Counted from the first letter of the stretch, positions 10,554 through 45,140 are shown. The stretch: DNA of 64,000 nucleotides from Thermotogota bacterium (GCA_003538775.1 DPRG01000105.1:12476-76475), one strand, 5' to 3'. Notes: generated from the letters alone by a model not told the origin. Numbers and translations are program-made.

Positions 10554-10577
10554 AGCCACCGTTTCGGTGGCGTATCC

Positions 10578-18840: not shown

Positions 18841-18917
18841 AGTACAATTCTACCAGTTTTTGGACCGGGTGATGTAGAATTGAATTGTAAAGTTGAAGGT
18901 CGAAATGGGGGATACGA

Positions 18918-27632: not shown

Positions 27633-28121
27633 ATGGTCCCAGAACGCTTTGTTAAAGTCATAAAGATGATTCATGGTAAGCTAACGGGCAGTGATATCGT
27701 ATGGGCACTCACAGGCAGCACCAGTTTTGCCATCCAGGGTATTGACGTAGTGCCCAAGGATATCGACATCCAGACAGACAAAGAAGGAGCTTATAGAATA
27801 GAGGAGTTGTTCTCTGAATACGTTGTCGAAAGAGTCAAGTTCAAAGAGAGCGAACTCATTCGATCTCACTTTGGAAAGCTGGTGATCGATGGTATCGATG
27901 TCGAAATCATGGGAGACATCCAGAAGAAAGTGGACGGTAATTGGGAACCGCCTGTGAATCTACCGCAGTATATCCTTTTCGTTGATTTTCAAGGCCTTAA
28001 ACTGCCCGTACTTTCACTGGAATACGAAGCAGAGGCTTACAGGAAGCTGCATAGGTATGACAGAGCCAGGGTGCTGAGTGAATTCACTTCACGCTCTCAA
28101 CGCACCCAGTTTTCTCATTAA
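27633..28121 (+). CDS. nucleotidyltransferase-fold protein (pol-beta-like)
   Basis: hG[GS]-x10-DhDh signature: ALTGSTSFAIQGIDVVPKDIDIQ; 3' end overlaps the convergent FGGY kinase. Confidence 0.45.
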   Translation: MVPERFVKVIKMIHGKLTGSDIVWALTGSTSFAIQGIDVVPKDIDIQTDKEGAYRIEELFSEYVVERVKFKESELIRSHFGKLVIDGIDVEIMGDIQKKVDGNWEPPVNLPQYILFVDFQGLKLPVLSLEYEAEAYRKLHRYDRARVLSEFTSRSQRTQFSH

Positions 28122-29576
28122 CTCCACATAATTCTGATACACTCGCTCATATTCGGAAATGAGTTTGGAATCAGGTTCTACAGTCTTCCATTCAATCCAG
28201 TTCTTTATGGAGTCGGGTTCCCCGACCTCGCCCACTGCAAGTGCCGCCAAAAAGGCGTCGCCGTAGGGAGCATCCAAAGATGTAGGAAGTATCAGTAATT
28301 TTCGATTTACCACAGCTGCGGTTATTTTCAGCCAGAGCGGGTTGCGCGTTAATCCTCCTACCACTCGGAGTTCGGGTTCTAACTTGATTCCAATGTTTCC
28401 TGCCACATCCATGGAACTCCGCAATGAAAAGGCTATGGCTTCCAGCACAGCACGGAAAAGGTGAGCTGGACCATGGGACAAGCTCAATCCATGAAGGGTG
28501 GCCCTGGCTTCGGGCTTCCAGATCGGTGCCCGCTCTCCCATAAAGAAAGGAAGAAGAATTAGTCCGTCTGAGCCTACCGAGATCTTCTCAGCATGTTGGG
28601 TGATCTCTGAAAGATCACCAACACCCGTCAGCTTCTTGAACCATTCGATTATCGCGCCAGATGTTGTTGCTCCTCCAAATGAGTAAGTCACTTTCCTTCC
28701 ATTTGTGACATATGGAAAGTTGACAAGTCGCCAATCGATTCGATATCCCGTGTGGATTGAACCCCAGCACATGGAAGTGCCAACCATAGCCGCGTGTTCA
28801 CCGGGTTTTGTGACACCGGCAGCCAGTGTGGCCACCGCTGCATCTATGCCTCCTGCCACTATGGGAAGGCCTTCTTTCAAGCTCAATTTATTTGCCCAGA
28901 TAGAATTCAGCCTTCCCACTATTTCACTGGAATCGACCACGTGTTCCGGGAATTTTGAAAGTTCTATACCTAAAAGTTCTGCGGCCTCTTCGGACCATTT
29001 TTTCTTCCTAACGTCAAAAATTCCTCCTATGTTTCCCGCCGAAGATAGGTCGATAACAACTTCTCCAGTCAGAAGATAGATAACGTAGTCTTTGGGTGTG
29101 AGAAAAAGATGAGTTTTCTTCCAAACGTCAGGCTCGTGCTTTTTCAACCAGAGTAGTTTTGTATATCCAAAGTAAGGATCCGTGTAATTTCCCGTTAGTT
29201 CAAAAATTTTTTCCCATCCCAGATGTTCTTTCACCCACAGGGTTTCTTCCACAGCGCGTTTATCCATCCAGATTAACGCAGGATACAAGGGTTCAAAGTT
29301 TTCATCTACCGGTACACCTGTTCCGCCGTACAAACCGCTAATGCACATCGCTGTTATATTTTTCGAGGGAGTGTTCAGTTTTCCAAGAGCTCTCGTGACC
29401 GCTTCTTTAAATCCTTTCACCCACACTTCGGCATTTTGCTGAGCCCAGGCGGGTTTTGGCATCTCCACAATGTAAGTGTCGGATAGACCCTCGGCCAGGA
29501 TTTTCCCTTTTTCATTTACCACAACGGCCTTGGTTGAACTGGTTCCAATATCCACACCCAAAAAAAGCACCCTCAT
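28089..29576 (-). CDS. FGGY-family carbohydrate kinase (xylulokinase/glycerol kinase-like)
   Basis: N-term LGVDIGTSSTKAVV, FGGY_N/FGGY_C architecture, 495 aa; co-oriented immediately downstream of lacI-type regulator. Confidence 0.8.
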   Translation of the reverse strand: MRVLFLGVDIGTSSTKAVVVNEKGKILAEGLSDTYIVEMPKPAWAQQNAEVWVKGFKEAVTRALGKLNTPSKNITAMCISGLYGGTGVPVDENFEPLYPALIWMDKRAVEETLWVKEHLGWEKIFELTGNYTDPYFGYTKLLWLKKHEPDVWKKTHLFLTPKDYVIYLLTGEVVIDLSSAGNIGGIFDVRKKKWSEEAAELLGIELSKFPEHVVDSSEIVGRLNSIWANKLSLKEGLPIVAGGIDAAVATLAAGVTKPGEHAAMVGTSMCWGSIHTGYRIDWRLVNFPYVTNGRKVTYSFGGATTSGAIIEWFKKLTGVGDLSEITQHAEKISVGSDGLILLPFFMGERAPIWKPEARATLHGLSLSHGPAHLFRAVLEAIAFSLRSSMDVAGNIGIKLEPELRVVGGLTRNPLWLKITAAVVNRKLLILPTSLDAPYGDAFLAALAVGEVGEPDSIKNWIEWKTVEPDSKLISEYERVYQNYVELMRKLGALRA

Positions 29577-30595: not shown

Positions 30596-30606
30596 TTCTC
30601 GACCTC

Positions 30607-30621
30607 CTCAAACGATTGCAT
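30607..30621. promoter_or_regulatory. putative LacI-type operator (CTCAAACGATTGCAT) overlapping the lacI RBS
   Basis: Shares the core CAAACGATTG with the two sites upstream of the TRAP operons; imperfect palindrome CAAaCG/CGaTTG. Confidence 0.45.
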
Positions 30622-30784
30622 AACCTTACTCTAAACGCGAATTCGTAAACGTTGAGGAGATTGTTAAGTAACGCTGGGCGTGTACACATTTAGTTATACC
30701 ACGAAATGCCGTCCGTACATTTCGTTTCTATTATATCTCACACTTGACAAATCTGCAAATCGATGATACTACAAAAGTAAAATC

Positions 30785-30803
30785 CGCAAACGATTGAGTT
30801 CAT
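30785..30803. promoter_or_regulatory. putative LacI-type operator CGCAAACGATTGAGTTCAT upstream of TRAP operon 1
   Basis: 19-nt identity with the site at 33903..33921. Confidence 0.5.
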
Positions 30804-30870
30804 GCTTCTTCGAATGAAAGGATACTATTTTCTATTCTTGGAGGTGGAAGATGAGAGGCGCAAAGCATTC

Positions 30871-31905
30871 AAAATGTTGGTAGTTACCTTGGTCTTGCTT
30901 GCTGCGATCATAGTTGTGGCCAAGGAGAAAGTCTACGTGCTGAAGTACAGCTGGATTTCTCCCCTTGAGCCCTTTGAACAGTGTTCAGGTGCTTACGCGA
31001 CAGTTTTCAAAAACGAGCTCGAGAGGCTTTCCGGCGGCAAAATCAAGGTTGAGCTCTATCCGTCGGCTCAACTTGGTGATCAGCGGGCTAGTATTGAGTT
31101 GCTAGTTCAGGGGATGATTCAAGGAGCAGATGTTGCATCCGGAGTGTTTGCGTCCTTGATGTATCCTCCACTTGAAATCGTGGATATGCCCTTCTTGTTC
31201 TCTTCCTACGAAGTAGCTTACCTCGCGCTTGGCCCGTACACAAATCCGTTTATGAAGAAGCTGGTAGAAGATTGCGCGAAAAAGACAGGGGTTCGGATTC
31301 TCAATATCTTGCCGTTCGGATTTCGACACATTTTGAATAGCAAAAGACCTATCAGAACTCCCGACGACCTCAAAGGTTTGAAGATAAGGACCATGGAGAT
31401 AGTACCGCACATAAAAATGATGGAAGCTCTCGGAGCCACCCCTGTTCCAATACCTTGGACGGAACTGTACACCAGCTTGCAGACAGGGGTCGTCGATGGA
31501 TTTGAGAATACCCCCCAAAACATTTTGCAGGGCAAGTTCTACCAAATCCAGAAATACTTGACACTTACTGGCCATGTAATGGGTGTAGGTGCAATTCTAA
31601 TCAGCGAGAAATGGTTCCAGTCCCTTCCCGATGAATTGAAGGTTGCGGTAATTGACGCAGGTAGGGCCGCTGCTAAAGCATACGTCGGGATAACTTTGAT
31701 TCAAGATGCCCTGGGTATTCAAGAGCTGAAAGCCAAGGGCATGAATGTTTACGCGCCTACACCAGGCGAACTGAAGCAGTTCAAAGATAGAGCAGTTCCG
31801 GCTGTGAAGGCGTATATGGAAGAAAGATTGGGTAGCGATTTTGTGAATGAATTCCTGAACTCCATTGAAGAAATCAAACAAAAAATGGCAGAGCTAGCCA
31901 AGTAG
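30871..31905 (+). CDS. TRAP transporter substrate-binding protein (DctP family)
   Basis: DctP-family SBP; start set to ATG 30871 (signal peptide MLVVTLVLLAAIIVVA); track start 30802 overlaps the operator; GTG 30844 is an alternative. Confidence 0.75.
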   Translation, partial: KMLVVTLVLLAAIIVVAKEKVYVLKYSWISPLEPFEQCSGAYATVFKNELERLSGGKIKVELYPSAQLGDQRASIELLVQGMIQGADVASGVFASLMYPPLEIVDMPFLFSSYEVAYLALGPYTNPFMKKLVEDCAKKTGVRILNILPFGFRHILNSKRPIRTPDDLKGLKIRTMEIVPHIKMMEALGATPVPIPWTELYTSLQTGVVDGFENTPQNILQGKFYQIQKYLTLTGHVMGVGAILISEKWFQSLPDELKVAVIDAGRAAAKAYVGITLIQDALGIQELKAKGMNVYAPTPGELKQFKDRAVPAVKAYMEERLGSDFVNEFLNSIEEIKQKMAELAK

Positions 31906-32056
31906 ACGGTTATTAGAAAAGGGAGGGAGCACTCCCTCCCTTTTAACTTCTTTTGGAATCATTGGCAAGATCCCTCATACACGAGAATGCAGTATGTAAT
32001 CTCCAAACATGATAGAGGAACACTCCATCGTTGGTTTACATCGAGGTGAGCAAAAC

Positions 32057-32527
32057 ATGTTGTCAAAATACGTGAAAGTTGTTGGGGTCTTAACAGGTAT
32101 GTGTCTGTTGTTGATGTTCGTAATAGTGACAGTAGCCGTAATAGCTCGTTACGTGTTTTCTTCTCCCATTTTCTGGGCTGGAGAATTTTCCAGATATCTC
32201 ATGTTTTACATGGTAATGTTAGGCAGTGGTTTGGCAATAAGAGATGACAAACATCCTTCTTTAACGTTCATAATAGAAAGATTTCCGCAGCGCTTGAAGA
32301 GGGTCTGGACCTATGTCGTTTACTTCTCTGTTCTCTTCGTTTCGGTGATAATACTCTGGCAGGGTTTCATAATGATGTCAAAATCTACCTTTTTGAGGAC
32401 TCCAGCGTTGAGAATCCCCTTTTCTTGGGTTTATGCAGGCCTTCCAATAGGAGGTGCCCTAATAAGCCTAGAAGCGGTACTCAAGGTTGCTTATACTTAC
32501 CTTTCCAGCAGGAGGAAAAGCTCATGA
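32057..32527 (+). CDS. TRAP transporter small permease (DctQ family)
   Basis: 4 TM helices, start ATG 32057 after GAGGTGA. Confidence 0.7.
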   Translation: MLSKYVKVVGVLTGMCLLLMFVIVTVAVIARYVFSSPIFWAGEFSRYLMFYMVMLGSGLAIRDDKHPSLTFIIERFPQRLKRVWTYVVYFSVLFVSVIILWQGFIMMSKSTFLRTPALRIPFSWVYAGLPIGGALISLEAVLKVAYTYLSSRRKSS

Positions 32528-33813
32528 ATGAAGGGCTAATTGTTGCTCTGATAACCTTTGGATTCATAATGTTCCTTGGAATTCCTCTGTCCTTTTCGAT
32601 GATCCTGAGTACGCTCATTTACCTCTTAACCAACGGTTTCTCTCTCTTCATCGTACCCCACAAGATATTCACAGGTATTGATACCTTTACGTTGATGGCG
32701 ATCCCGTTCTTCATGCTTGCAGGTGAATTGATGGTCATCTCCGGAGCTGCTGAAAGGATTTTAGAGTTCTCAAACGTTTTGGTTGGACGCTACAGAGGAG
32801 GACTGGCTTACGTCAACATATTGGCGAGCATGCTTTTTGGTGGGTGTTCTGGTTCAGCACTTGCAGACGTTGCAGGGCTTGGCAGACTCGAAATTTCCAT
32901 GATGGAAAAGGGAGGTTATACACGCTCTTTCAGTACTGCACTGACAATAACATCATCTGTCCAAGGCCCTATAATTCCACCCAGTATAATAATGGTCCTG
33001 ATTGGAGCGGCAACTAACACGTCTGTTGGTGCACTCTTATTGGGTGGAGCAATACCAGGAGTTCTGGTGGGATTAGCCCAATCTCTGGTGGTCTTCTTGA
33101 ATAGGAAGAAATTTCCACGATCACCGGTAGAGCTTCCTCTGAGGAAAAAGGTAATTGTCTTACTTTCCGCTTTGCCATTTTTGGCAATGCCCGTCATAAT
33201 CCTTGGAGGTATAATAAGCGGCGTTTTTACTCCCACAGAAGCTTCTGCTATTGCAGTTTTATACGGTTTCATACTGATATTCGTTTATCGAAAAGGAAAG
33301 GTGAATCTGTCGGAACTTGGAGGGTTGTTCAAAAGAGTGGGTATCACAACAGCGACTATTTTGATGTTGTCTGGAGGGTCAAATCTCTTTGGTTGGATGC
33401 TGGCCAATGAAAAGCTACCCCAAACCCTTGCGAATTTCCTTCTTTCCTTCACTGGCGACAAATATGTGTTTTTGATTATCATGAATATATTCCTCTTGCT
33501 GTGGGGAATGTTTATGGACGCTCTGCCAGCCATCTTGATACTCGCTCCCATATTCTTCCCAATAGCAAAACAAATGGGAGTTGATTCGATCCACTTCGGC
33601 GTCGTGATGGGATTCAACCTTGCTATAGGTCTTATCACACCGCCTTATGGCGCTGCGATATTCACAGGTGTGGTAGTCAGTGGACTTCCCATGGAAAAAT
33701 TGGTAAAGGAAATGGTTCCCTTCATTCTCGCTTCTATTGGAATTCTGATACTGGTTACCTATTTCCCAGAAGTAGTTTTGTATATTCCATCCTTGTTCGG
33801 TTTGTTGGACTAA
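32524..33813 (+). CDS. TRAP transporter large permease (DctM family)
   Basis: MNEGLIVALITFGFIMFLGIPL... DctM family; ATGA overlap with dctQ. Confidence 0.85.
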   Translation: MNEGLIVALITFGFIMFLGIPLSFSMILSTLIYLLTNGFSLFIVPHKIFTGIDTFTLMAIPFFMLAGELMVISGAAERILEFSNVLVGRYRGGLAYVNILASMLFGGCSGSALADVAGLGRLEISMMEKGGYTRSFSTALTITSSVQGPIIPPSIIMVLIGAATNTSVGALLLGGAIPGVLVGLAQSLVVFLNRKKFPRSPVELPLRKKVIVLLSALPFLAMPVIILGGIISGVFTPTEASAIAVLYGFILIFVYRKGKVNLSELGGLFKRVGITTATILMLSGGSNLFGWMLANEKLPQTLANFLLSFTGDKYVFLIIMNIFLLLWGMFMDALPAILILAPIFFPIAKQMGVDSIHFGVVMGFNLAIGLITPPYGAAIFTGVVVSGLPMEKLVKEMVPFILASIGILILVTYFPEVVLYIPSLFGLLD

Positions 33814-33902
33814 GCTGAACATACGGTAGTACGGTAATGCAAGGTAGTAGTGAGTGGCGCTTGACAAAAAATACGGTTGGTGGTAATATAATTTTGTTAT
33901 GA

Positions 33903-33921
33903 CGCAAACGATTGAGTTCAT
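33903..33921. promoter_or_regulatory. putative LacI-type operator CGCAAACGATTGAGTTCAT upstream of TRAP operon 2
   Basis: Identical 19-mer to 30785..30803; 22 nt upstream of dctP2 start. Confidence 0.5.
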
Positions 33922-33942
33922 TCCAAAGGGGAGGTGTTCGTC

Positions 33943-34941
33943 ATGAAAAAGTGGGCTGTGGTTTTATCGATTCTATTGTTAGTGAGTATTTTCGCATTTG
34001 CCGAGGTCAAGCCAGACTACGTGCTTCGATTCAACACAGTTGCCGCGCCCACCCAGCCTCAGGTGTTAGCCATGCAAAAGTTTGCGGAAATCGTGGAGGA
34101 GCTCAGCGGTGGCAAGATTAAGGTAGAGGTATACCATTCGGGACAGCTTGGAGATCAAAAGACTGCGCTGCTCGCGGTGATGAGGGGAGACCTTGAAATG
34201 ACCAGTGATGCTGCTCCGTCGTGGTTCGCCGATCTCGCAGCAATGCCAGAATTCGGTGTCTTCGAGGCTGCATACGTTTTCAAGGACTTGGATCATCTCT
34301 ATAGGGTTATGACCAGTAAGATGGTGCAGGAACTCTTCGATAAGATGGCAGCCAAGACAGGCTTGAGGGTGCTCGATATCTGGTACCTGGGCACCAGAGA
34401 GCTAAATCTCACTGCGAAAGTAGGCCCTGTAAGAAGACCGGAGGATCTCAAAGGCGTCAAGTTGAGGATGCCTAACAACAAGACCTTCTTGGATATGGGA
34501 AGAGCGCTCGGAGCAACGCCAACTCCCATGGGTTTCGGCGAAGTCTACCTCGCTCTCAAGACGGGGACTGTGGACGGTCAGGACAATCCACTTCCAACTG
34601 ACTTGGCAGCCAAGTTTGTTGAGGTGACTAAGTACATCGTTCTCACAGACCACCAGATTGGCATGCTGTGCCCTGTGATCAATGAAAAACTCTGGCAGAG
34701 TATGCCTGAAGAGTATAAAGTTTATATCAAAAAGGCCATGGAAGTAGCGCGATATTACATGAACGAAATGGTATTGGAGCAGGAAGCCAAGTTGCTCAAG
34801 TTATTCAAAGAGAAATACGGAATGGAGATCATCGTTCCCGACAAAGAAGCTTTCATGAAACACGCTCGTGAATACTACAGTCAGCCTGAGTTTGACAAGC
34901 TCTGGGGTAAAGGCATGTACGAAAAGATTCAAAACATGTGA
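33943..34941 (+). CDS. TRAP transporter substrate-binding protein (DctP family), second system
   Basis: MKKWAVVLSILLLVSIFAFA signal peptide; ATG 33943 after GGAGGTG. Confidence 0.8.
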   Translation: MKKWAVVLSILLLVSIFAFAEVKPDYVLRFNTVAAPTQPQVLAMQKFAEIVEELSGGKIKVEVYHSGQLGDQKTALLAVMRGDLEMTSDAAPSWFADLAAMPEFGVFEAAYVFKDLDHLYRVMTSKMVQELFDKMAAKTGLRVLDIWYLGTRELNLTAKVGPVRRPEDLKGVKLRMPNNKTFLDMGRALGATPTPMGFGEVYLALKTGTVDGQDNPLPTDLAAKFVEVTKYIVLTDHQIGMLCPVINEKLWQSMPEEYKVYIKKAMEVARYYMNEMVLEQEAKLLKLFKEKYGMEIIVPDKEAFMKHAREYYSQPEFDKLWGKGMYEKIQNM

Positions 34942-35021
34942 TGAGGAATGGAAAATGAGAAACGAACGAGGTGGGGCTTCCCCACCTCGTTTTAAATTCT
35001 ATGACCGGAGTGAGTGTGAAA

Positions 35022-35540
35022 ATGAAGGTGGCAAAGAAAATTCTGAAGACAGTTGTCGATATTGTAGAACAACACCTTTCGTCGATATTTTTGTTCTCTG
35101 TTTTCATCAGTATGTTTTTCCAGGTGTGGCTGAGGTACATCTTTAAGATGCCGTCACCGGAGCTTTACGAGATCACTCTGTATTCCTTCGCCTGGGCTGT
35201 TTTGCTCGGCGCTGCTTATGCCCACAGATATCGTGATCATATACGGTTTAACATCATTTATGAGAAACTGCCCAGAAAGGCACAACTGGTGATCGACATA
35301 GTTTTTGACGCTTTGCTAACGATTCTCTTTACGATTTCCCTTCGCCCAGTATTCCGACAGGCATTTTGGTACCATATGATCCGTTCCGAAGTGCTGGGAA
35401 TTCCCTGGACTTATCTCGTGTTCTGTTTGCCTCTTTTCATTATCCTTGTGATAGGTCACAATGTGGTCTTTCTTTACTACGAAATCCGCGAGTTGTTTAC
35501 GGGTAAACCCATGAATCTGGAGGAGAAACCGTGGCTTTGA
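35022..35540 (+). CDS. TRAP transporter small permease (DctQ family), second system
   Basis: start ATG 35022 after GGAGTGAGTG. Confidence 0.7.
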   Translation: MKVAKKILKTVVDIVEQHLSSIFLFSVFISMFFQVWLRYIFKMPSPELYEITLYSFAWAVLLGAAYAHRYRDHIRFNIIYEKLPRKAQLVIDIVFDALLTILFTISLRPVFRQAFWYHMIRSEVLGIPWTYLVFCLPLFIILVIGHNVVFLYYEIRELFTGKPMNLEEKPWL

Positions 35541-36826
35541 CAGTCTTTTTCCTCACCTTTGGTTTGATGTTCGTTTTGGGTTATCCAATTGTTTTTGCGA
35601 TGATAGCAGGTGGAATTCTGTACTTTCTGGTTACAGGCCTTGATCTTTCAAACCTCATAGATATCCTCGTGATTCACTTTTCGGCACAGGATGTGCTGAT
35701 CGCCGTCCCGCTGTTTATATTCACTGCCAACGTCATGAACGATTGTGATATCACCCACAAACTCTTCGACTTCATCCAAAAGGCCATGGGGAGAATCCGT
35801 GGAGGCCTCGGCTATGCGAACATAGTAGCCAGTATCATCTTTGCCGGGATGAGTGGCTCGGAGATCGCCGATGTTTCGGGTATAGGAAACATCGAAATAA
35901 AAGCGATGATGGATGCGGGGTATGATGGAAAATTCGCATGTGCTGTGACCGCTGCGTCGGCTACCATAGGACCCATCATTCCACCAAGCATTCCCATGGT
36001 CATATACTCCATGCTCACAGGGGCTTCGCTTGGATATCTCTTTCTTGCAGGTTTTTTGCCAGGACTTCTTTTGGGAATATTTGAAATGATCATGGTCTAC
36101 ATTCTCTCACGCGTGCGTAACTATCCTCGAGGGGAAAAAGTACCCTTTCCGATGCTGCTCAGAGCCTTTTGGAGTTCACTGCCTGCGCTTTTGGCACCTG
36201 CGATTCTGTTGATAGGTATTTACGGTGGTGTTTTCACTGCAACAGAAGCCGCTGCTGTAGTGGCAGGATATGTGATAATCATCAGTTTTTTGATTTATAG
36301 AAGCCTTGGATGGAAGAAGCTTTACAGGATATTGATGAAGAGTGCTGAATCTGTAGGATACATCAGCTTCATAGTGGCGTCGGCTTATATCGTAACCTAC
36401 GTGGTGGCCAGAGAACATGTGGCCCAACAGATTACAGAAGCGTTCATAGAATCTGGACTGCTTTCGAACAAGATTCTTCTCCTTTTGAGTATAAATTTAC
36501 TCTACTTCATTTTGGGCATGTTCATCGACGTTTCCATCATACAGCTTGTGGTGATCCCCATGGTATTTCCTTTGGTACAGGCGGCGGGGATCGACCCCGT
36601 GCATTTTGGAATCATCACCACGGTTAATTTGATGATGGCCTTAGACACCCCGCCTTATGGTCAGACCGGTTACATCACCAGCGCTTTGAGTGGTACGCCA
36701 CTTCGGGAGGTTTTCAAAGAAATGTTGAAGTACTGGATACCGACAGAGGTCGCTGCTTTGATGGTAATAACCTTCTGGCCGGACTTCGTGCTCTTCTTAC
36801 CTCATTTGTTTGGCTACTCTGGCTGA
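35531..36826 (+). CDS. TRAP transporter large permease (DctM family), second system
   Basis: DctM family; GTG start after GGAGGAG. Confidence 0.85.
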   Translation: MALTVFFLTFGLMFVLGYPIVFAMIAGGILYFLVTGLDLSNLIDILVIHFSAQDVLIAVPLFIFTANVMNDCDITHKLFDFIQKAMGRIRGGLGYANIVASIIFAGMSGSEIADVSGIGNIEIKAMMDAGYDGKFACAVTAASATIGPIIPPSIPMVIYSMLTGASLGYLFLAGFLPGLLLGIFEMIMVYILSRVRNYPRGEKVPFPMLLRAFWSSLPALLAPAILLIGIYGGVFTATEAAAVVAGYVIIISFLIYRSLGWKKLYRILMKSAESVGYISFIVASAYIVTYVVAREHVAQQITEAFIESGLLSNKILLLLSINLLYFILGMFIDVSIIQLVVIPMVFPLVQAAGIDPVHFGIITTVNLMMALDTPPYGQTGYITSALSGTPLREVFKEMLKYWIPTEVAALMVITFWPDFVLFLPHLFGYSG

Positions 36827-36847
36827 TAGTGGAAAGGAGGAAAAAGT

Positions 36848-38275
36848 ATGAAAAAGTACAGAGTTGGTGTTATTACCTTCTCCGACGGCCGTGAATTCGT
36901 ACACAGGGACTTGCTGGAAACCAACAAGAAGTTCGAAGATAGGTTGGTGAAAACTCTTGAAGATACCGGAGAAATAGAGGTGGTGAGGGCATCTGAAATT
37001 GTGTGGAAGCCATCGCTGGCTAAGAAAGCAGGCAAAGAGCTCATGAAAGCGGAAGTGGAAGTGACCGTATTCAATTACGCCATATGGTGCTGGCCTCATC
37101 TCTCGGTATTAGCTTCGCTCTTCGCACCGGGGCCGTTTCTACTCTACGGTCAAGTCAATCCCAGATATCCCGGCATGGTGGGACTTTTGGCAGCATCTGG
37201 AGCTTTAGAACAGGTGGGAATTTTCCATGAAAAGATCTGGGGCGAGCCCGAATCAGATGAAGTGAGAGAGAAGATCCTCACATTCGTGAGAGCTGCTGCA
37301 GCTACGAGCAGGTTGAAGGGAGAAAGATATGGGATGTTCGGCGGGCGCCCTATGGGTATGTACACTGCCGCAGCCAACGGAGATCAGTGGATGAAAGAGT
37401 TCGGAATTGATGTGGAGCAGATAGATCAGTATGAGCTGGTTCTCAGGGCTGAAAAGGTACCGAAGGAAAAGAAAGAAAGGGCACGTAAATGGCTTGAAGA
37501 GCTGGCTACAGTTGCTTACGATGGGAAACTCCTAACTCCCGAAATACTGGAGCGTCAGATAGCGCTTTACTACGCTGCGCGGGAGATCATCGAAGAGTAC
37601 GAACTTGACTTCGTTGGTTTCAAAGGCCAGCCAGAGATGACCAACAACTACGCTACCATGGACGTAGTGGAAGCTTTTTTGAACGACCCATATGATTGGG
37701 ATGGGCCGAAAGAACCTGTCGTCGCAGCCACAGAGACGGATATGGACGGAGCTTTAACAATGGAGATTTTCAAACACATAGCAAGGCAGCCAGTGCTCTT
37801 TGCCGATGTGCGCCACTATTTTGAAAGAGAGAACCTGCTCGATTTGTGTAACAGTGGAACACACGCCACCTATTTCGCCGCTCGTTCCTATGATCCAAGG
37901 GAAAACCTGAAGCACGTAACGTTTTACCCAGAAACGTTCTACTTCCCCGCAGGTGGCGCGGCGGTGAAACACGTAGCAGCGCCGGGCGAAGTCACATTGG
38001 CGAGGCTTACCAGAAAAAACGGAAAATACCACATGACCATCGTTCCCGCAGAATTCGTGCGTTTGTCAAAAGAAGAAGAGGAAAGGCTTATGAAAGAAGT
38101 ACAGGAGGAATGGCCTCATGCTTACGCAAGGCTCAAAACAGACATGGAGACATTCTTGAAGCATTATCCCTGTAACCACATCCACGGAGTTTACGGCAAC
38201 TATGTGAACGAACTCATCACCTTCTGCAAGATCAAAGGAATCAATTACACACTTCTCGATAAGGAGGGAATCTGA
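36848..38275 (+). CDS. L-fucose/L-arabinose isomerase-family protein (putative sugar isomerase)
   Basis: 475 aa, resemblance to COG2407 fucose-isomerase-like proteins; tentative assignment. Confidence 0.45.
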   Translation: MKKYRVGVITFSDGREFVHRDLLETNKKFEDRLVKTLEDTGEIEVVRASEIVWKPSLAKKAGKELMKAEVEVTVFNYAIWCWPHLSVLASLFAPGPFLLYGQVNPRYPGMVGLLAASGALEQVGIFHEKIWGEPESDEVREKILTFVRAAAATSRLKGERYGMFGGRPMGMYTAAANGDQWMKEFGIDVEQIDQYELVLRAEKVPKEKKERARKWLEELATVAYDGKLLTPEILERQIALYYAAREIIEEYELDFVGFKGQPEMTNNYATMDVVEAFLNDPYDWDGPKEPVVAATETDMDGALTMEIFKHIARQPVLFADVRHYFERENLLDLCNSGTHATYFAARSYDPRENLKHVTFYPETFYFPAGGAAVKHVAAPGEVTLARLTRKNGKYHMTIVPAEFVRLSKEEEERLMKEVQEEWPHAYARLKTDMETFLKHYPCNHIHGVYGNYVNELITFCKIKGINYTLLDKEGI

Positions 38276-39196
38276 ATGAAGATGGATGTTGTCGGTAAGT
38301 TCGGTCGAGTTCTTCTTCCATTGATCACGGTTTTCAAAGAGGACCAATCGGTGGACTACGCCATGACAAGAAAAGTGGCCAGATTCGTCGTCGACAAGGG
38401 ATACTGTGACTCTGTCATCGTGAGCGGCACCACAGGCGAATTCTATGTTATGAGCAAAGAAGAACGCATAAAGCTCTTTGAAGAGATCAAGGACGAATTG
38501 GGAGATTCCGTGCCTTTAATAGCTGGTACCGGAGCGGCCTTCGTTGGAGAAGCTATTGAACTCACTAAGGCTGCTGAAAGATTAGGTTACGACGCCGTCA
38601 TGGTTGTTGTACCCTACTACTGCCATCCTGAACAGGAAGGCATTTATCAACACTTCAAGAGAGTTGCAAAGAGTACTTCGCTGCCCGTTATGATCTACAA
38701 TATACCTCTTTTTGTTGGTGTGAATATTTCTCCGGATACGGTTGCGCGTTTGGCTGAGATAGACAACATCGTGGCAGTCAAGGACGAGGCAGGACTCCAT
38801 CCGTTGCAGACCACGGCGTTCATAAAAAAGACCAGAGGGCAACTCGCGGTGTATTCCGGAGACGATACCATGGTTCTCCAGGTATTGACACAGGGTGGTG
38901 TCGGTGTTGTCAGCGGAGGTGCCCACGTGGTGGGAGACATTATAAAAAAGATGATCGACGACTTCCTTTCAGGGAGAAATGACGACGCTACGGAAAAATT
39001 CCATACCTTGATGGATCTATATTCGGCCTTCCATGGGGTAGATGGGAAAAGAACAAATCCGACACCCTTGGTGAAAGCGGCTTTCGAAATGATTTCCGAT
39101 CTGCCAACTTCTCTTCCGAGGCTTCCACTGACGCCAGCCACTGAAGAAGAAAAGGAACGGTTGAAAGCGGCACTGAAACGCGTCGGGAAGCTTTGA
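38276..39196 (+). CDS. DapA/NAL-family lyase (dihydrodipicolinate synthase-like aldolase/dehydratase)
   Basis: VSGTTGEF, MIYNIP (Tyr), IVAVKDEAG (Schiff-base Lys) motifs. Confidence 0.75.
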   Translation: MKMDVVGKFGRVLLPLITVFKEDQSVDYAMTRKVARFVVDKGYCDSVIVSGTTGEFYVMSKEERIKLFEEIKDELGDSVPLIAGTGAAFVGEAIELTKAAERLGYDAVMVVVPYYCHPEQEGIYQHFKRVAKSTSLPVMIYNIPLFVGVNISPDTVARLAEIDNIVAVKDEAGLHPLQTTAFIKKTRGQLAVYSGDDTMVLQVLTQGGVGVVSGGAHVVGDIIKKMIDDFLSGRNDDATEKFHTLMDLYSAFHGVDGKRTNPTPLVKAAFEMISDLPTSLPRLPLTPATEEEKERLKAALKRVGKL

Positions 39197-39212
39197 GGAG
39201 GCAGACCAAGGG

Positions 39213-40172
39213 ATGCTCACGAGGGAAGAAGTCAAAGAGATTTACGTTCTGGTGCCCACACCCTTGGATTCAAAAGGACGGTTCGATGAGCACACTTTCC
39301 GAGAAAACATCAGAAAACTTTGCAAAAGCGGTGTGCACGGGATAGCCACTACGGGGACTGTTGGTGAATTTTACACACTATCCTGGGAAGATCACAAGCG
39401 GTTGATCGATGCATTGGTGGACGAAGCTTCCAAGTGTCGGCAAAGACTTGCGACTATTGTTGGATGCAGTGCTCTCAACACCAGAGAAACCATAGAAAAG
39501 ACATCCTATGCTGAAGAACGAGGTGTAGATGCGGTTATGAACGTGGTGCCTTTTTATCAAAAGCTGTTGGAATGGGAAGTTGTGGAATTTTGGAGTGATC
39601 TTGCGAAAGCTTGTCCAAATATTGGGATCTTCATCTACAACAATCCCATCACTGGACGGATTCTCCACACTCGAGAACTCTACAAAAAACTCGCAAAGTA
39701 TCCCAACATCCTTGGAAGCAAAGAAGTGGTAACCAACTTCGATCACTGGCTATCCCTGCGAGATACAGGTCTTGTTCATATGCACATAGACATTCTCTTC
39801 GTTCCCACCATGATGTGGGGAGCAAAAGGATGCTTTTCTGGTGGAGCTTGCATCCGTCCTGATTTGTTGCTCAAAACGTACGAGTTATGCAAGCAAGGTG
39901 AATGGGAAAAAGCGAAGGAATTGCAGTATCTCATAAACGATCTCATGGCTTGCCATGATCGCCATGATTATCCCATAACTCCAGGGGGTTCAGCTGCAGT
40001 TTATAAGGCCTTTGTTGAAGCGGGCGGTTTTTTGAGGTGTGGCGATCCAGGAAAACCGTATCTTCCAGTTGGAGAAAGTGTGAAGTTGAAGATCAAGAAG
40101 GAGTTGGAGAAGGTTCAAAAAAGAATCGATGAGGCATTATCCCGCTTGAGTGATTCTCAGGAGGTGAAATAA
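39213..40172 (+). CDS. DapA/NAL-family lyase, second paralog
   Basis: TTGTVGEF, IYNNP, ILGSKEV (Lys) motifs. Confidence 0.75.
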   Translation: MLTREEVKEIYVLVPTPLDSKGRFDEHTFRENIRKLCKSGVHGIATTGTVGEFYTLSWEDHKRLIDALVDEASKCRQRLATIVGCSALNTRETIEKTSYAEERGVDAVMNVVPFYQKLLEWEVVEFWSDLAKACPNIGIFIYNNPITGRILHTRELYKKLAKYPNILGSKEVVTNFDHWLSLRDTGLVHMHIDILFVPTMMWGAKGCFSGGACIRPDLLLKTYELCKQGEWEKAKELQYLINDLMACHDRHDYPITPGGSAAVYKAFVEAGGFLRCGDPGKPYLPVGESVKLKIKKELEKVQKRIDEALSRLSDSQEVK

Positions 40173-40177
40173 CGTTC

Positions 40178-41290
40178 ATGGAACTCAGAGAACTTTCAGA
40201 CGCGTATTTAAAAGCGGTAAATTTTCAGAATCCTCCGTGGATTCCAGGTAAGGTGGCATTTCTTCCAGCAACATGGAAAACGTATGGTAAGGAGTTGGAA
40301 AAGATTGTACTGACGTACAGAAAGCTCTTTCCAGAGTATCAACCAGGAGATTACAAACGTCTCGCTAAACCCCCACATCCTAGATACATGCCTGGAAAGT
40401 TTACTGACGCGTGGGGATGTGTCTGGAGCAACGATTACGAGGGACTTGCTGGGGTTGTAACGGAGAGCCCGCTCAAAAACTGGGGAAAACTCGAGAAGTT
40501 TTCGCCACCTGATCCCGAGGAGATGGACGACTACGGCGATCCCGTGGATTGGGAACATCGAAAAAGACAGGTGGAACGCATACACGAGCTTGGGGGGCTT
40601 GCGTTCGGCTATTTCATACACGGTTTTTTCTTCATGCGTCTCTTCTATCTTCGAGGATTTGAAGAGCTGATGCTCGATATGGCGATGGGTGAAGAAAAGG
40701 TTTGGACGCTCATAAAAATGGTCAGAGAATACAATCTTAAACTGGCAGAACTATGGCTGAAAACAGGGATCGATGTTATCTGGTTTGGTGATGATCTGGG
40801 AACCCAGGAATCGTTGATGATAAGCCCCAAAATGTTTCGTGAATACATTAAACCCTTCTACAAGGAGATTTTTGGATTGTTCAAAGATGCGGGAGTTTAC
40901 GTGTACTTTCACAGCGACGGTCGGATTGTCGATATTTTGGAAGATTTGATCGAATGCGGAGCCAGCATCGTCAATCCACAAATCGGGCCAAACACAGTGG
41001 AAGAACTTGAAAGATTCAAAGGACGTGTCTGTATGGACGTGGACCTTGACAGGCAGCTCTTTTCTACAGGTACACCAGATCAGATAAGAAAACATATCCA
41101 TACCGTCATAGAAACTTTGAAACAGGAAGAGGGAGGGCTCATGGCTTACGCAGAGTGCAGTCCAGAGGTACCTTTGGAAAATATCAAGGCTGTCTGTGCC
41201 ACCATGGCAGAACTTTGCGGTCCAACGGCGATGAAAGACTTTGTGCAGCTGCAGACAAGTCACATATCCTCAAAGCATGGAGGTGACTAA
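40178..41290 (+). CDS. uroporphyrinogen decarboxylase (URO-D) family protein, MtaA/CmuA-like methylcobamide methyltransferase candidate
   Basis: URO-D fold length and composition; not HemE-like at N-terminus; lacks the HxC zinc motif of methanogen MtaA (has HSDG). Confidence 0.65.
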   Translation: MELRELSDAYLKAVNFQNPPWIPGKVAFLPATWKTYGKELEKIVLTYRKLFPEYQPGDYKRLAKPPHPRYMPGKFTDAWGCVWSNDYEGLAGVVTESPLKNWGKLEKFSPPDPEEMDDYGDPVDWEHRKRQVERIHELGGLAFGYFIHGFFFMRLFYLRGFEELMLDMAMGEEKVWTLIKMVREYNLKLAELWLKTGIDVIWFGDDLGTQESLMISPKMFREYIKPFYKEIFGLFKDAGVYVYFHSDGRIVDILEDLIECGASIVNPQIGPNTVEELERFKGRVCMDVDLDRQLFSTGTPDQIRKHIHTVIETLKQEEGGLMAYAECSPEVPLENIKAVCATMAELCGPTAMKDFVQLQTSHISSKHGGD

Positions 41291-41291
41291 A

Positions 41292-41927
41292 GTGGAAACA
41301 CTAAGGAAATTACGAGATTCACTCATAGAAGGTGAAGTGGAAGAGGTGAAGCGTTACACGCGGCAAGCGTTAGATGAAGGTATACCCGCAAAAACAATAT
41401 TAGATCAAGGGTTGGTCGCGGGTATGGATGTAGTAGGCGTTAAGTTCAGGGAAGGTGAATACTTCTTGCCAGAAGTCTTGCTATGTGCGAAGGCGATGCA
41501 CGCTGGGCTTGATATACTCAAGCCACTTCTTGCTGGAGAAGGCGAGAAAAGCGTCGGTACCATTGTGCTGGGAACCGTCAAAGGTGATCTCCACGATATA
41601 GGAAAGCGCATAGTCAAGGCTATGTTAGAAGGTGCTGGATATGAGGTAATTGACATAGGTGTGGACGTGGATGCAGAAAAGTTTGTGGAAAGTGTCAAGA
41701 AATATAAACCGCTCGTACTGGGGATGTCGGCTCTTTTGACAACCACGATGCGTTATATGAAGACAGTAATAGATGCCTTGCAAGATGAAGGCATCAGAGA
41801 TAAGGTCAAAATTATCGTGGGCGGAGCACCTGTCAACGAGGAGTTTGCGAAGCTTATAGGAGCCGACGGTTACGCACCCAATGCCAGCGAAGCTGTAGAT
41901 CTTGTAAGGCGTTTGATAGCAGCATAG
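41292..41927 (+). CDS. corrinoid (cobalamin B12-binding) protein, MtaC/MtmC-like
   Basis: N-terminal four-helix cap plus Rossmann B12-binding domain with DxHxxG motif (GDLHDIGK) and GMSALLTTT; GTG 41292 after GGAGGTGA. Confidence 0.8.
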   Translation: METLRKLRDSLIEGEVEEVKRYTRQALDEGIPAKTILDQGLVAGMDVVGVKFREGEYFLPEVLLCAKAMHAGLDILKPLLAGEGEKSVGTIVLGTVKGDLHDIGKRIVKAMLEGAGYEVIDIGVDVDAEKFVESVKKYKPLVLGMSALLTTTMRYMKTVIDALQDEGIRDKVKIIVGGAPVNEEFAKLIGADGYAPNASEAVDLVRRLIAA

Positions 41928-41938
41928 GAGGCTTGAAA

Positions 41939-43306
41939 ATGGGAGAAATGGCGTACAGTAGTGCTCGGGAGATGATCTTTGGATTTGCCAAAAAGCCGGT
42001 GAACGTGGGAAACGAGCTTATCATCGGAAATGGGAGAGTGATTCCAGAGGTCAATTTCACCCTTCCATCTGTGAATCTGGATGAAGAGAATGTTCCAGAA
42101 ATCAGAGAAAGATTCAAAGATATTGCGAACCGAATCATGAAAAGATGTGTGGAGTTACAACAGGAGGAAGTGGTAATTGAGTTCGAGCATTTGTTTGATA
42201 TGACCGAAAGACCGGATTTTGGTGCACAGCTCACGAAGGATCTCAAAGAAGTCATTGAGAAGTACTATCAATCACACGGCATCAAAGCTGCTCTGAGAGT
42301 TACCATAGCTGATATTCGTGACAGAGTCCGACCGCCCAGGATGAGAAGTGGCAGAGAGATTGAGACGATGCTACGTTCATTCGAGCTCTGCGCTGATGCG
42401 GGCGCCGATATACTGTCCATCGAAAGTACCGGCGGAAAAGAGATTTCCGATAACGCTTTGATGATGGGGGACGTGGAAGGAGTGTTGTTCGCACTCGGTG
42501 TTTTGGGACCAAGAGATATGGAGTTCTTGTGGAACGAGATAGTTTCGATAGCTCATCGTTATGACGCTGTCCCAGGAGGAGATACGGCATGCGGTTTTGC
42601 CAACACTGCCATGCAATTGGCACATCAGGGGTTGTTACCGAAGGTGCTGGCCGCCGTTGTGCGTCTTATGAGCGCTCCGCGGTCTTTGGTGGCAGTGGAA
42701 GTGGGAGCAGTTGGCCCGCTCAAAGACTGTGGGTATGAGAACCCGGTAATCAAGGCTATCACAGGGGTTCCCATTAGCATGGAAGGTAAGACAAGCGCGT
42801 GCGCTCATTCGTCGCCCTTAGGAAACATCGCGGCTGCGGTGTGCGATCTTTGGAGCAACGAGTCTGTCCAGGATGTAAAACTTCTAAGCGGCAATACACC
42901 CGAAGTCTTCACCGAGATGCTCATCTACGACTGCAGGCTGATGAACACAGCCATAAAAGCGGGCAAGGCCGAATCTTTGCGAGACCTTATGGTGGATTCT
43001 GATCGTTTTCTCGATCCACAGGCCCTGGTTCTCGATCCAGAAATCATGTATGAAGCGGCTCATGTGGTCGTCAGAGTGGGGGAAGATAAATACAAACAAA
43101 CAGTTGCCGTTTCAAGATATGCCTATGAAGTTGTGAAAGAAGCTGAAACGACCGGCAAGGTAAAACTACGCGATGTTGAAAAGAAATGGCTTGAGAAAGT
43201 AGGAAAAATCCTGGAACACCTACCTGAAGAAGAGGAAGAGTTCTATGCTAAGGTAAAGGCAAGATATGAAGGACATTTTGTCCCCGAAGAGTACGGACTG
43301 AAGTGA
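41939..43306 (+). CDS. MtaB-family methanol:corrinoid methyltransferase-like protein (MT1)
   Basis: N-term MAYSSAREMIFGFAKKPV...IPEVNF and internal SAPRSLVAVEVGAVGPLKDCGYEN, MEGKTSACAHS motifs characteristic of MtaB TIM-barrel zinc enzymes. Confidence 0.7.
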   Translation: MGEMAYSSAREMIFGFAKKPVNVGNELIIGNGRVIPEVNFTLPSVNLDEENVPEIRERFKDIANRIMKRCVELQQEEVVIEFEHLFDMTERPDFGAQLTKDLKEVIEKYYQSHGIKAALRVTIADIRDRVRPPRMRSGREIETMLRSFELCADAGADILSIESTGGKEISDNALMMGDVEGVLFALGVLGPRDMEFLWNEIVSIAHRYDAVPGGDTACGFANTAMQLAHQGLLPKVLAAVVRLMSAPRSLVAVEVGAVGPLKDCGYENPVIKAITGVPISMEGKTSACAHSSPLGNIAAAVCDLWSNESVQDVKLLSGNTPEVFTEMLIYDCRLMNTAIKAGKAESLRDLMVDSDRFLDPQALVLDPEIMYEAAHVVVRVGEDKYKQTVAVSRYAYEVVKEAETTGKVKLRDVEKKWLEKVGKILEHLPEEEEEFYAKVKARYEGHFVPEEYGLK

Positions 43307-43328
43307 TAGGTCAATCGAGGTGCTGAGC

Positions 43329-45140
43329 TTGAATAAGATCAAGGTAAAGATCGCTGAAACGAATAGAGAGGTCTTTTGTGATAAGAATTCAAACCTTTTA
43401 CACTGTCTTCAGAATGCGGGATTTGCTCTACCTGGTGAGTGTGGAGGCCATGGAGTTTGTGGAAAATGTAAGGTTAAGGTATTATCTCCCCAGTCTCTAA
43501 CACCACCCAGCGACGCCGAAAAACGTTTATTAACACAAGAAGTGCTTAAAAGCGGTGTTCGTCTTGCTTGTCAGGTAAGATTGATTCGAGATACCAAAAT
43601 CGCTGTGTCCACCTCTGTAAAAATCGATAATACCATTCGCTTGACAGGGGAAACCCAACGCTGTGAACAGGATCCAACGTTGATCGCGAAGGCGTTTGTC
43701 ATATCTCCTGAATCTTTTGGAACTTCAAAAAGCATGCTTGAAGATTTAGAAAACACTTTGAAGGCTCGAGCCGGATCTCTGCTTGTGATAAAAACTCTTC
43801 CCCTACTTTTGGGGAAAAACGAACATCATGGCAAAGCGATAATTTACAACGACGAAATCCTGGATTTGTTACCAGCAGATTCGTCTCGTAGGCTACTCGG
43901 CCTCGCTATAGATCTTGGAACAACGACTATCGTTGGGTATTTGGACAACCTCGAAAATGGTGAGAACCTCGCGGCTTCAGTGCGGTTGAACCCGCAGCGT
44001 GCTTGGGGAGCCGATATCATTTCACGTATCTCGATCGTGATGGAAAAAACCAAACATCTGGGAAAAATGCAAAAGGCAGTTGTAAACGCCATCAATGAAA
44101 TGGCCAAAGAGTTGTGTTACAAAGCCAACGTCTCTTGTAAGGATATCTATCGCATAGTCGTGGTTGGTAATCCCACGATGGTACACATTTTGGCTGGTGT
44201 AAACCCATCCAGCATTGCAATGGCGCCATTTACCCCAGTGTTTTTGAGATATTTAGAATTTCCTGCCAAAGAACTCGGTATTTCACAGGTAAACCCTGCT
44301 TGCAAAGTTTCACTCATGCCACATGCGTCATCATACATTGGATCGGATATACTTGCGGGGCTTATCAGCTCGGAATTCTTAGAAGAAACGACAGCGCTTT
44401 ATATAGATCTTGGCACAAATGGTGAAATCGTTCTCAAAGCCGACAAACAGATTTTCGCTACTTCTACAGCAGCAGGCCCTGCTTTCGAAGGTGCGACCAT
44501 AAAGCGAGGATCTGTAGCCTGGCCAGGAGCGGTAGATCATGTCTGGATTGAGAACGACAAGCTAGGATATTCTGTGATAGGAGAACGTGAAGCCGAAACC
44601 ATTTGCGGTTCTGGTATTGTGGACTTGATCGCTATAGCTCTTAAATTAGGACTGATAGATCCCCAGGGGAAAATCGCTTCATCTCCACAAGACGAATTTG
44701 AAGGGTTCGTATGCGAAGTTGATGGGGAACGAGCTATTAGATTGTCGGAGAAGGTGTATTTAACGCAGTCTGATATTCGACAGATACAGTTAGCGAAAGC
44801 AGCCATAAGCGCTGGCGCAAGTATTCTTGTTAAAGAAAGTGGTGTTTCATTGGATGCACTCAAGATATACATTACTGGCACTTTTGGTGCCAGGCTAAAC
44901 ATCAAAAATGCGTTCAAAATAGGCTTGTTGCCCTTAGTTTCGGAGAAAAATGTTGTTCAACTTGGAAACGCTGCGGGTCTGGGTGCAAGGATGATACTTC
45001 ATAGTCGAACTCGCGAGAAACAAATCAACGAGCTCAGATCGTGTATAACAATCCTGGAACTGTCGACCGATCCTCGTTTTTCAGATGCGTTTATCGAGCA
45101 TATGCCCTTTCCCAGCGAGGACATTCAGAATAGTTTGTAA
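43329..45140 (+). CDS. RamA/RACo-type reductive activator of corrinoid proteins (N-terminal 2Fe-2S ferredoxin + ASKHA ATPase domain)
   Basis: CGGHGVCGKCKV...C plant-type ferredoxin motif followed by DUF4445/ASKHA domain (LAIDLGTTT, DLGTNGE); ~600 aa; likely TTG 43329 (track GTG 43320). Confidence 0.75.
   Translation: MNKIKVKIAETNREVFCDKNSNLLHCLQNAGFALPGECGGHGVCGKCKVKVLSPQSLTPPSDAEKRLLTQEVLKSGVRLACQVRLIRDTKIAVSTSVKIDNTIRLTGETQRCEQDPTLIAKAFVISPESFGTSKSMLEDLENTLKARAGSLLVIKTLPLLLGKNEHHGKAIIYNDEILDLLPADSSRRLLGLAIDLGTTTIVGYLDNLENGENLAASVRLNPQRAWGADIISRISIVMEKTKHLGKMQKAVVNAINEMAKELCYKANVSCKDIYRIVVVGNPTMVHILAGVNPSSIAMAPFTPVFLRYLEFPAKELGISQVNPACKVSLMPHASSYIGSDILAGLISSEFLEETTALYIDLGTNGEIVLKADKQIFATSTAAGPAFEGATIKRGSVAWPGAVDHVWIENDKLGYSVIGEREAETICGSGIVDLIAIALKLGLIDPQGKIASSPQDEFEGFVCEVDGERAIRLSEKVYLTQSDIRQIQLAKAAISAGASILVKESGVSLDALKIYITGTFGARLNIKNAFKIGLLPLVSEKNVVQLGNAAGLGARMILHSRTREKQINELRSCITILELSTDPRFSDAFIEHMPFPSEDIQNSL

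Follow-up and report, generated by a model that had tools for sequence, protein, structure and literature searches.

The locus described here poses a question of regulation: why does a 64-kb window of Thermotogota bacterium DNA (GCA_003538775.1, DPRG01000105.1:12476-76475; the window is the whole stretch analysed, 64,000 nucleotides) repeat one operator-like motif in front of two TRAP transporter operons, TRAP1 and TRAP2, and on the ribosome-binding site of a LacI-family regulator gene? From the sequence of this and related loci, we consider it highly likely that the three sites, here called O1 (TRAP1), O2 (TRAP2) and O-lacI, serve as operators for the LacI-family repressor whose gene lies at 29573-30595. 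The predicted targets are very probably the two TRAP operons and the regulator's own lacI–kinase operon, which would form a local LacI-family regulon with autoregulation, a relative of the Thermotogales RbsR group that fits the known majority pattern.

The first-pass annotation had picked out an exact 19-mer, CGCAAACGATTGAGTTCAT, and two copies are indeed present at 30785-30803 and 33903-33921, spaced 3118 bp apart, with no further match in the window when up to three mismatches are allowed. By chance 0.03 matches are expected, and none of 100 shuffles held two. The 10-mer core CAAWCGWTTG occurs three times (30609, 30787 and 33905) against an expectation of 0.42, and the 13-mer GCAAWCGWTTGAG has exactly three perfect matches (30607-30619 on the minus strand, 30786-30798 and 33904-33916 on the plus strand), each reading 5'->3' along the sense strand of its downstream gene. 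The minus-strand copy confirms an annotated third core on the lacI Shine-Dalgarno sequence (SD), the minus-strand reading across O-lacI and SD being TGCAATCGTTTGAGGAGGtcgagaaATG. The distances given earlier for the 19-mers, about 20-70 nt before the dctP starts, also agree with ours: 22 nt to the dctP2 ATG at 33943 (33 nt from the centre of O2) and 48-70 nt to dctP1, by the start chosen.

Phylogenetic footprinting carries the argument further. The set comprises 11 Thermotogota loci that encode relatives of the regulator at 38-91% identity: the metagenome-assembled genomes (MAGs) L001 (91%), L002 (86%), L003 (84%) and L006 (70%), the Pseudothermotoga MAG L007 (55%), the metagenome contigs L008 (79%), L009 and L010 (both 52%) and L011 (45%), and the genomes of Kosmotoga (L021, 41%) and Defluviitoga tunisiensis (L022, 38%); relatives at 84-91% come from 'Thermotogae/Thermotoga sp.' MAGs, and protein relatives put the window in an uncultured Thermotogota lineage. 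At nine loci (L001-L003 and L006-L011) the regulator is divergent from an operon that encodes a FucI-like isomerase and/or a transporter (TRAP or ABC), usually along with DHDPS-family and FGGY genes. The regulator gene of Kosmotoga and of Defluviitoga is instead the first gene of such an operon. Comparing these orthologous intergenic regions, a check that the annotation had proposed, revealed the same site upstream of lacI in 11/11 loci, within surrounding DNA that is unalignable. All nine divergent loci (regulators of 45-91% identity) have a site beside the target operon, 7-15 nt past a -10-like hexamer, and 8/9 have a second site before lacI; counting Kosmotoga (24.0 bits) and Defluviitoga (21.9 bits), each with one site between the lacI -10 and SD, a site fronts lacI in 10/11 loci.

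Pooling these sites gives the consensus tnACGCAAACGTTTGCGTna, an even palindrome of 16-20 bp with central CG, symmetric halves GCAAA and TTTGC and flanks extending to tnAC...GTna; it falls within the even, CG-centred, 16-22 bp format described for the family (PMC4052901). In the 18 tabulated sites position 10 is always C, and position 11 is G in 17 of them. The promoter-near half is a perfect GCAAAC in nearly all sites, while the distal half is degenerate (GATTGA, GTTTGT, GATTTC, GAATGC), as in the window copies (GATTGAGT). The three window copies also share their orientation relative to transcription, with SD overlap or leader constraints as a possible cause. The L001 counterpart of O1 differs by one base; O2 has orthologous sites in L002, L003, L008, L006, L007 and L011; and GCAATCGTTTGAGGAGG of O-lacI is unchanged in L001, L002 and L003 despite diverged flanks, with lower-scoring yet recognisable counterparts before lacI in L008, L006, L009, L010, L011, L021 and L022.

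The footprint extends to one operon remote from any regulator. A Pseudothermotoga operon encoding a FucI-like isomerase, DHDPS, DctPQM of TRAP1 type and LarA, its binding protein among the nearest DctP1 relatives beyond the window's lineage (55-58% identical), carries the operator TCGCAAACGAATGCGT (20.1 bits; L018 999-1014, L019 998-1013) after TTGACT...TTATTCT, with no regulator gene near it in L018/L019. Its site and the lacI-adjacent site of the Pseudothermotoga MAG have a common variant, CGCAAACGAATGCGT, with the unusual right half GAATGCG. Because this operon carries TCGCAAACGAATGCGT, TRAP1-type operons are predicted to belong to the regulon elsewhere too. Over the 11 loci and this remote operon, the sites thus lie at promoters or leaders of the regulator gene and of co-localised operons and are conserved amid diverged flanks.

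Specificity was assessed with a weight matrix built from 15 sites of the related loci (17.5 bits), window sites excluded. O2, O1 and O-lacI rank first in the 64 kb, at 24.3, 22.0 and 18.9 bits, and are the only window sites of at least 17 bits, all at the lacI–TRAP locus. In 100 shuffled windows the best score averaged 13.8 bits and peaked at 19.4 bits, so that O1, scored by orthologous loci only, exceeds every shuffle. With the pooled matrix, 130 kb of the nine divergent loci yielded no match of at least 13 bits outside the lacI intergenic regions. A fourth variant that the first-pass annotation had placed at 30645, GTAAACGTTGAG, is present as sequence and is not a site: in 30643-30658 the half-site spacing is one base short, the score is 3.1 bits against 19-24, and the stretch has diverged in L001. 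Two intragenic candidates for auxiliary operators, 32768-32783 in dctM1 (16.2 bits) and 34072-34087 in dctP2 (14.7 bits), were rejected as chance or coding constraint, their scores being near or below the top shuffle scores and no orthologous locus having at least 13 bits at the same place. An intergenic match at 2652-2667 (13.7 bits), between an XRE–cupin regulator gene and an aminotransferase/butyrate-kinase-type operon, is at chance level and of unrelated function.

The sites are placed where repression would be expected (Table 1). Because the GCAA half-site begins 13 nt (O1) or 14 nt (O2) past the -10 box, O1 and O2 cover roughly +1 to +25 of the predicted TRAP1 and TRAP2 transcripts, a classical repressor position. 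P1 is homologous to promoters of L001, L002, L003 and L008 (TTGACA...TCGATGATAACAT), where the counterpart -10 is TACTAT or TAACAT. P-lacI keeps its TATAAT and the spacer TGTCAAG in these four loci; O-lacI lies between this promoter (30730-30759) and the lacI ATG at 30595, in the leader and on the ribosome-binding site, about 110 nt downstream of P-lacI, an arrangement that points to autoregulation by the same motif. The P1 -35 box (TTGACA, 30744-30749) reads as TGTCAA within the P-lacI spacer, kept in the same four loci, and the two overlapping promoters may compete for RNA polymerase. Footprinting and position relative to promoters together strongly support the annotation's proposal of LacI-type operators with central CG and of a small regulon with autoregulation.

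Table 1. Predicted features of the lacI–TRAP locus, in window coordinates.
Feature	Coordinates	Strand	Basis and remarks
FGGY-family sugar kinase	28089..29576	-	Family match; overlaps lacI stop
LacI-family regulator gene, 340 aa	29573..30595	-	LacI-family models, RbsR and PurR best
Predicted operator O-lacI, TTATGCAATCGTTTGAGGAG (minus-strand reading)	30604..30623	-	Central CG 30613/30614; overlaps lacI Shine-Dalgarno
Predicted promoter P-lacI, TTTGCA - 18 nt - TATAAT	30730..30759	-	Consensus scan; back to back with P1, overlapping
Predicted promoter P1, TTGACA - 17 nt with TGn - TACTAC	30744..30772	+	Read by eye
Predicted operator O1, ATCCGCAAACGATTGAGTTC	30782..30801	+	Central CG 30791/30792; between P1 and TRAP1 operon
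TRAP1 operon	30802..33813	+	Family matches; dctP1 (30814 or 30874, start uncertain) to 31905, dctQ1 32009-32527, dctM1 32425-33813
Segment with TRAP1 and P2	30804..33902	+	Bounded by 19-mers; flank homology test
Predicted promoter P2, TTGACA - 17 nt with TGn - TAATAT	33861..33889	+	Consensus scan, 10/12 with TG
Predicted operator O2, TGACGCAAACGATTGAGTTC	33900..33919	+	Central CG 33909/33910; between P2 and dctP2
TRAP2 operon core	33943..40172	+	Family matches
dctP2, dctQ2, dctM2	33943-34941, 34971-35540, 35531-36826	+	TRAP2
FucI-like isomerase	36848-38275	+	TRAP2 operon, family match
Two DHDPS-family genes	38276-39196 and 39213-40172	+	TRAP2 operon, family match
URO-D/MtaA-like methyltransferase, corrinoid protein, MtaB-like protein, RACo-type activase	40178..45140	+	Family matches

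The regulator matches LacI-family models over its full length, with helix-turn-helix (HTH) and hinge helix present. Its best NCBIfam model is RbsR, below the cut-off of that model (216 vs 382 bits), and it aligns end to end with E. coli PurR (PurR residues 1-332, E 8.5e-43), including the hinge ARSL; in PurR–DNA structures the hinge-helix leucine opens the central CpG step. It falls in a distinct TRAP-linked clade, with 36-41% identity to the regulators of the rbsR-like clade (Kosmotoga and Defluviitoga). Between the two clades the recognition helix PSTVSRALSGKPGVS hardly changes, which fits their common motif. By alignment to PurR the protein lacks a C-terminal extension like the one through which LacI tetramerises. 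A DNA loop joining O-lacI to O1 was considered and set aside: 178 bp, about 17 helical turns, separate their centres, the spacing is not phase-conserved among relatives (178, 114, 115, 90, 224, 193, 166 and 164 bp), and the protein aligns with dimeric PurR, without the extension.

Set against known systems, the predicted regulon has ordinary architecture. In a survey of 1303 LacI-family regulators (Ravcheev et al. 2014, PMC4052901), 1251 had even palindromes and 1173 a central CG, and 72% of the transcription factors (TFs) were autoregulated. Like the local sugar regulons of that survey, the present one would combine an even, CG-centred palindrome of 16-20 bp with an autoregulated TF gene divergent beside its target; its targets, a transporter and catabolic enzymes, follow the majority pattern there. 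The part of the supplementary tables of PMC4052901 that was searched has no dctP or fucI entries, and this TF with TRAP, FucI-like and DHDPS targets was not found in it.

The closest described relative is the predicted Thermotogales RbsR regulon (TM0949), which includes the FucI-like isomerase darA (TM0951) and the FGGY kinase drlK (TM0952; Rodionov et al. 2013, PMC3750489). Both systems encode a LacI-family TF with a FucI-like isomerase and an FGGY kinase, and the Kosmotoga and Defluviitoga relatives sit in RbsR-type operons with the same motif. Unlike RbsR, however, the window TF would target TRAP and DHDPS-family genes, not rbsABC, rbsD and rbsK; no rbs transporter, RbsD or ribokinase gene is present at the window locus. 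The window TF is accordingly placed outside the rbsR-like clade, a separation based on the Kosmotoga and Defluviitoga TFs and not on TM0949 itself. For the published T. maritima RbsR motif, the supplements searched contain no site sequences. UctR (TM0326), the regulator of the TRAP system UctMPQ in T. maritima, belongs to a different, Thermotoga-specific regulon.

The E. coli PUR box, ACGCAAACGTTTGCGT, resembles the family consensus here, which we take as a lead. PurR acts globally on nucleotide synthesis and depends on a corepressor; unlike it, the window TF appears to be a local regulator at a carbohydrate-type locus, and several residues within and beyond the HTH differ (STTTVSHVINKTR in PurR, HPSTVSRALSGKP in the window TF). 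In the portion of the literature and supplements that we searched, we found no description of this clade or of a TRAP/DHDPS regulon. The analysis offers ACGCAAACGTTTGCGT as an operator model and assigns a regulon to an uncharacterised LacI clade widespread in Thermotogota, and it links genes of unassigned substrate (two TRAPs, FucI-like, FGGY, two DHDPS and possibly a corrinoid set) into one pathway. The understanding of how LacI-family regulation works is unchanged by it, and the only unusual features are the operator-bounded insertion and the attached corrinoid methyltransferase genes described below.

In the mechanism that we propose, a regulator dimer would occupy each operator in the absence of inducer. 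At O1 and O2 it would block open-complex formation or promoter escape; at O-lacI it would act as a roadblock, a negative autoregulation that would cover lacI as well as the FGGY kinase, which we place in the lacI transcription unit because its gene overlaps the lacI stop. A pathway intermediate, a sugar or sugar acid, would release the repressor. A LacI-family dimer bound far downstream of a promoter can block the elongating polymerase, as at CcpA cre sites, the purB operator and lac O2, and we liken the proposed O-lacI roadblock to these CcpA, PurR and LacI cases from its ~110-nt distance to P-lacI only. The substrate would enter through the TRAP systems and pass to the FucI-like isomerase, the FGGY kinase and the DHDPS-family lyases.

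Several points weigh against this interpretation. O-lacI, at 18.9 bits, scores below the best of the 100 shuffles, and because one shuffle reaches 19.4 bits its case is made by conservation and position, not by score. The ~110 nt that separate it from the only conserved lacI promoter are unusual for simple occlusion and call for a roadblock or an unseen proximal promoter; L001 has a plausible candidate for such a promoter just before O-lacI (TTTACA-16-TAATAG), the window a weak one, and L002 and L003 none. P1, P2 and P-lacI are predicted promoters, consensus matches only, and the -10 of P1, TACTAC, is without the usual final T and does not appear in the list of a simple consensus scan. That the protein represses and does not activate, and that its effector is an inducer and not a corepressor, is deduced from position and family habit. 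Lastly, the Pseudothermotoga MAG L007 has no lacI-proximal site, so autoregulation would not be universal.

The alternative that fares best, though we judge it decidedly improbable, keeps the sites as protein-binding sites and hands them to another regulator, either a global one of CcpA type acting at cre sites or another LacI paralog. The core does resemble the general LacI/CcpA-type pattern TGnAAnCGnTTnCA, the second-clade relatives (Kosmotoga and Defluviitoga rbsR-like operons, 38-41%) combine the same motif with a near-identical recognition helix, and cross-binding by a paralog is conceivable, L011 encoding two such paralogs within 10 kb. The distribution of sites speaks for local control instead: in the 130 kb of related loci and the 64-kb window they occur only at operons adjoining or functionally matching the TF locus, and not, as cre sites would, in number at unrelated catabolic operons. 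A site adjoins the TF gene in 11/11 lacI loci, and a local variant, CGAATGCG, is found at both the Pseudothermotoga lacI locus and its remote operon. Unlike for CcpA, no HPr-type cofactor or global role is indicated for the window TF.

The two L011 regulators are themselves informative: the TRAP-linked copy (10001-11008) and the copy at an rbs-like operon (18505-19578) lie <10 kb apart and have nearly identical recognition helices, raising a question of cross-talk; the L011 locus ends short of the region upstream of the second operon.

Between the two 19-mers lies a segment of 3.1 kb with TRAP1 and P2. It is present in the window and L001 and absent between lacI and dctP2 in L002, L003, L008 and L006; in L002, L003 and L008 only one operator stands between lacI and a TRAP2-type dctP. 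The flanks of the single operator in L002 and L003 were compared with those of O1 and O2. The upstream (promoter) flank matches the O1 side (z 5.8 and 6.9) and not the O2 side (z 1.5 and -0.1), and the downstream flank with SD and start matches the O2 side (z 9.0 and 7.6) and not the O1 side (z 1.0 and 0.9); P2, in keeping, is not homologous to the promoter before the single operator. The homology switches at the repeat, and the 19-mers are therefore the junctions of an indel carrying TRAP1 and P2.

Recent duplication of a TRAP operon was rejected as the source of the repeat, since the two are only 35% (DctP) and 34% (DctM) identical and their promoter regions are unalignable (z 0.2 upstream, 0.0 downstream). 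A close ortholog of TRAP1 is found only in L001 (93%), the next nearest being 57-60% identical. The parsimonious reading of these sequences is that an old TRAP paralog was inserted in the lineage of the window and L001, because L008 and L006 have no TRAP1 beside lacI and only L001 shares it. Such an insertion would have placed a further member of the regulon, the TRAP1 operon with promoter and operator, in the lacI–TRAP2 intergenic region: a donor of the order P2–operator–leader–dctPQM1 would have integrated via the operator sequence, swapping the promoters of the two TRAP operons. The two identical operators may be crossover points that captured an unlinked regulon member (P2–operator–TRAP1), and this history probably explains why the identity of the 19-mers runs past the operator core. 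The locus would then exemplify a regulon that gained an operon by insertion exactly at an operator, with both junctions remaining operators.

The same facts allow a stricter reading, to which we give scarcely any credence: that the repeat is a recombination scar only, the duplicated junctions of the TRAP1 insertion, without regulatory role. The 19-mers do bound exactly the segment missing from L002, L003, L008 and L006, the flank homologies switch at the repeat, and the identity extends 3-5 nt past the conserved operator positions (GAGTTCAT). Yet relatives that lack the insertion have the same site as a single copy, distant relatives have it at TF identities as low as 38%, it always lies between -10 and SD, and a third copy stands at lacI; a scar would not stay conserved amid diverged surroundings. 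Scarring accounts for the length of the identity, not for the existence of the sites.

We hold it equally improbable that the motif acts as RNA, as a leader hairpin or as an RNA or protein binding site for translation control. This idea draws on the common sense-strand orientation of the three copies of GCAAWCGWTTGAG, their place in predicted leaders (one of them on the SD), and the O-lacI-to-SD distance, which is fixed while the distance to the -10 ranges from ~13 to 110 nt among relatives. However, the possible hairpin has 3 bp and a 4-nt loop (CAA-ACGA-UUG), the positions beside the central CG vary (A..A, T..T, A..T) without keeping complementarity, which fits protein recognition and not base pairing, and distant relatives show a symmetric DNA palindrome in both orientations. 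An Rfam scan of 30500-34100 gave no family match at E<=1, which together with the non-complementary positions argues against a structured leader. A dispersed repeat of REP/MITE type, which the annotation had named as a possible refutation, can be dismissed: the window holds two copies, and each of the six exact matches to the 19-mer in a metagenome collection comes from unrelated DNA (42-59% GC) without homology to the locus proteins, as chance would produce.

The lacI–FGGY gene order recurs in L006 and L001, and the synteny of TRAP2 with lacI is kept in L006, L007 and L011. In Pseudothermotoga, the LarA-like gene (lactate-racemase family) of the remote operon hints at a step of 2-hydroxy-acid epimerisation.

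Downstream, the corrinoid methyltransferase set begins 5 nt past the second DHDPS-family gene, with its SD inside that gene, and is probably the distal part of the TRAP2 operon (40178-45140), a co-transcription suggested by this spacing. Its MtaB-like protein scores 502 bits, under the 720-bit MtaB cut-off. The order of the set is repeated in L006 (1-3442) and not in L007, L011 or L018. These genes suggest a methyl removal tied to the imported sugar acid. A fuller scheme, in which the regulon imports an O-methylated sugar acid through TRAP and corrinoid demethylation precedes catabolism by isomerase, kinase and lyase, is speculative, and we regard it as unlikely; O-methylated sugar acids are not known as a substrate class of MtaB-type systems.

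The start of dctP1 probably also needs revision. The first-pass annotation had called the start at 30802 wrong for lying inside the operator. That start is probably wrong, although the operator argument does not hold, the lacI operator itself overlapping an SD. ATG 30802 is probably not the start because it has no SD and lies ~20 nt from the predicted transcript start, and because in L001 the ortholog has its start ~50 nt downstream, preceded by the strong SD AGGAGGTGG. The L001 start codon aligns with GAG at 30853-30855 in the window. A strong window SD, GGAGGTGG, is present at 30840-30847, and the ATG behind it, 30851, is out of frame: it opens an ORF of 10 codons whose TAG stop (30881-30883) lies just past the next in-frame ATG, 30874, which the ORF overlaps. 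Candidate in-frame starts are ATG 30814, without SD, and ATG 30874. A 'Thermotogota bacterium' MAG protein of 363 aa shows 100% identity to DctP1, and its NCBI entry starts at ATG 30814. The GAG itself is possibly an assembly error or a real start-codon mutation.

Further observations concern individual genes. Directly after each dctP and before dctQ lies a strong GC-rich hairpin with a T-rich stretch (31917-31944 and 34965-34991); these could act as partial terminators or messenger RNA stabilisers, raising expression of the binding protein relative to the membrane subunits. The Pseudothermotoga regulator of L007 is called with a CTG start (10001-10003), with an in-frame stop 9 nt upstream. 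DctP2 is 79-90% identical in loci whose LacI is only 45-70% identical (comparing L002, L003, L006, L007 and L011), so TRAP2 is much better conserved than its regulator; possible reasons are a transporter cassette passed on laterally or a regulator that evolves fast. In L008 (5450-6260) a TRAP2-type dctP start gives way after ~100 nt to dctM-like sequence, behind an intact operator and promoter; dctP-dctQ-dctM appear to have been largely deleted there, or the contig is chimeric.

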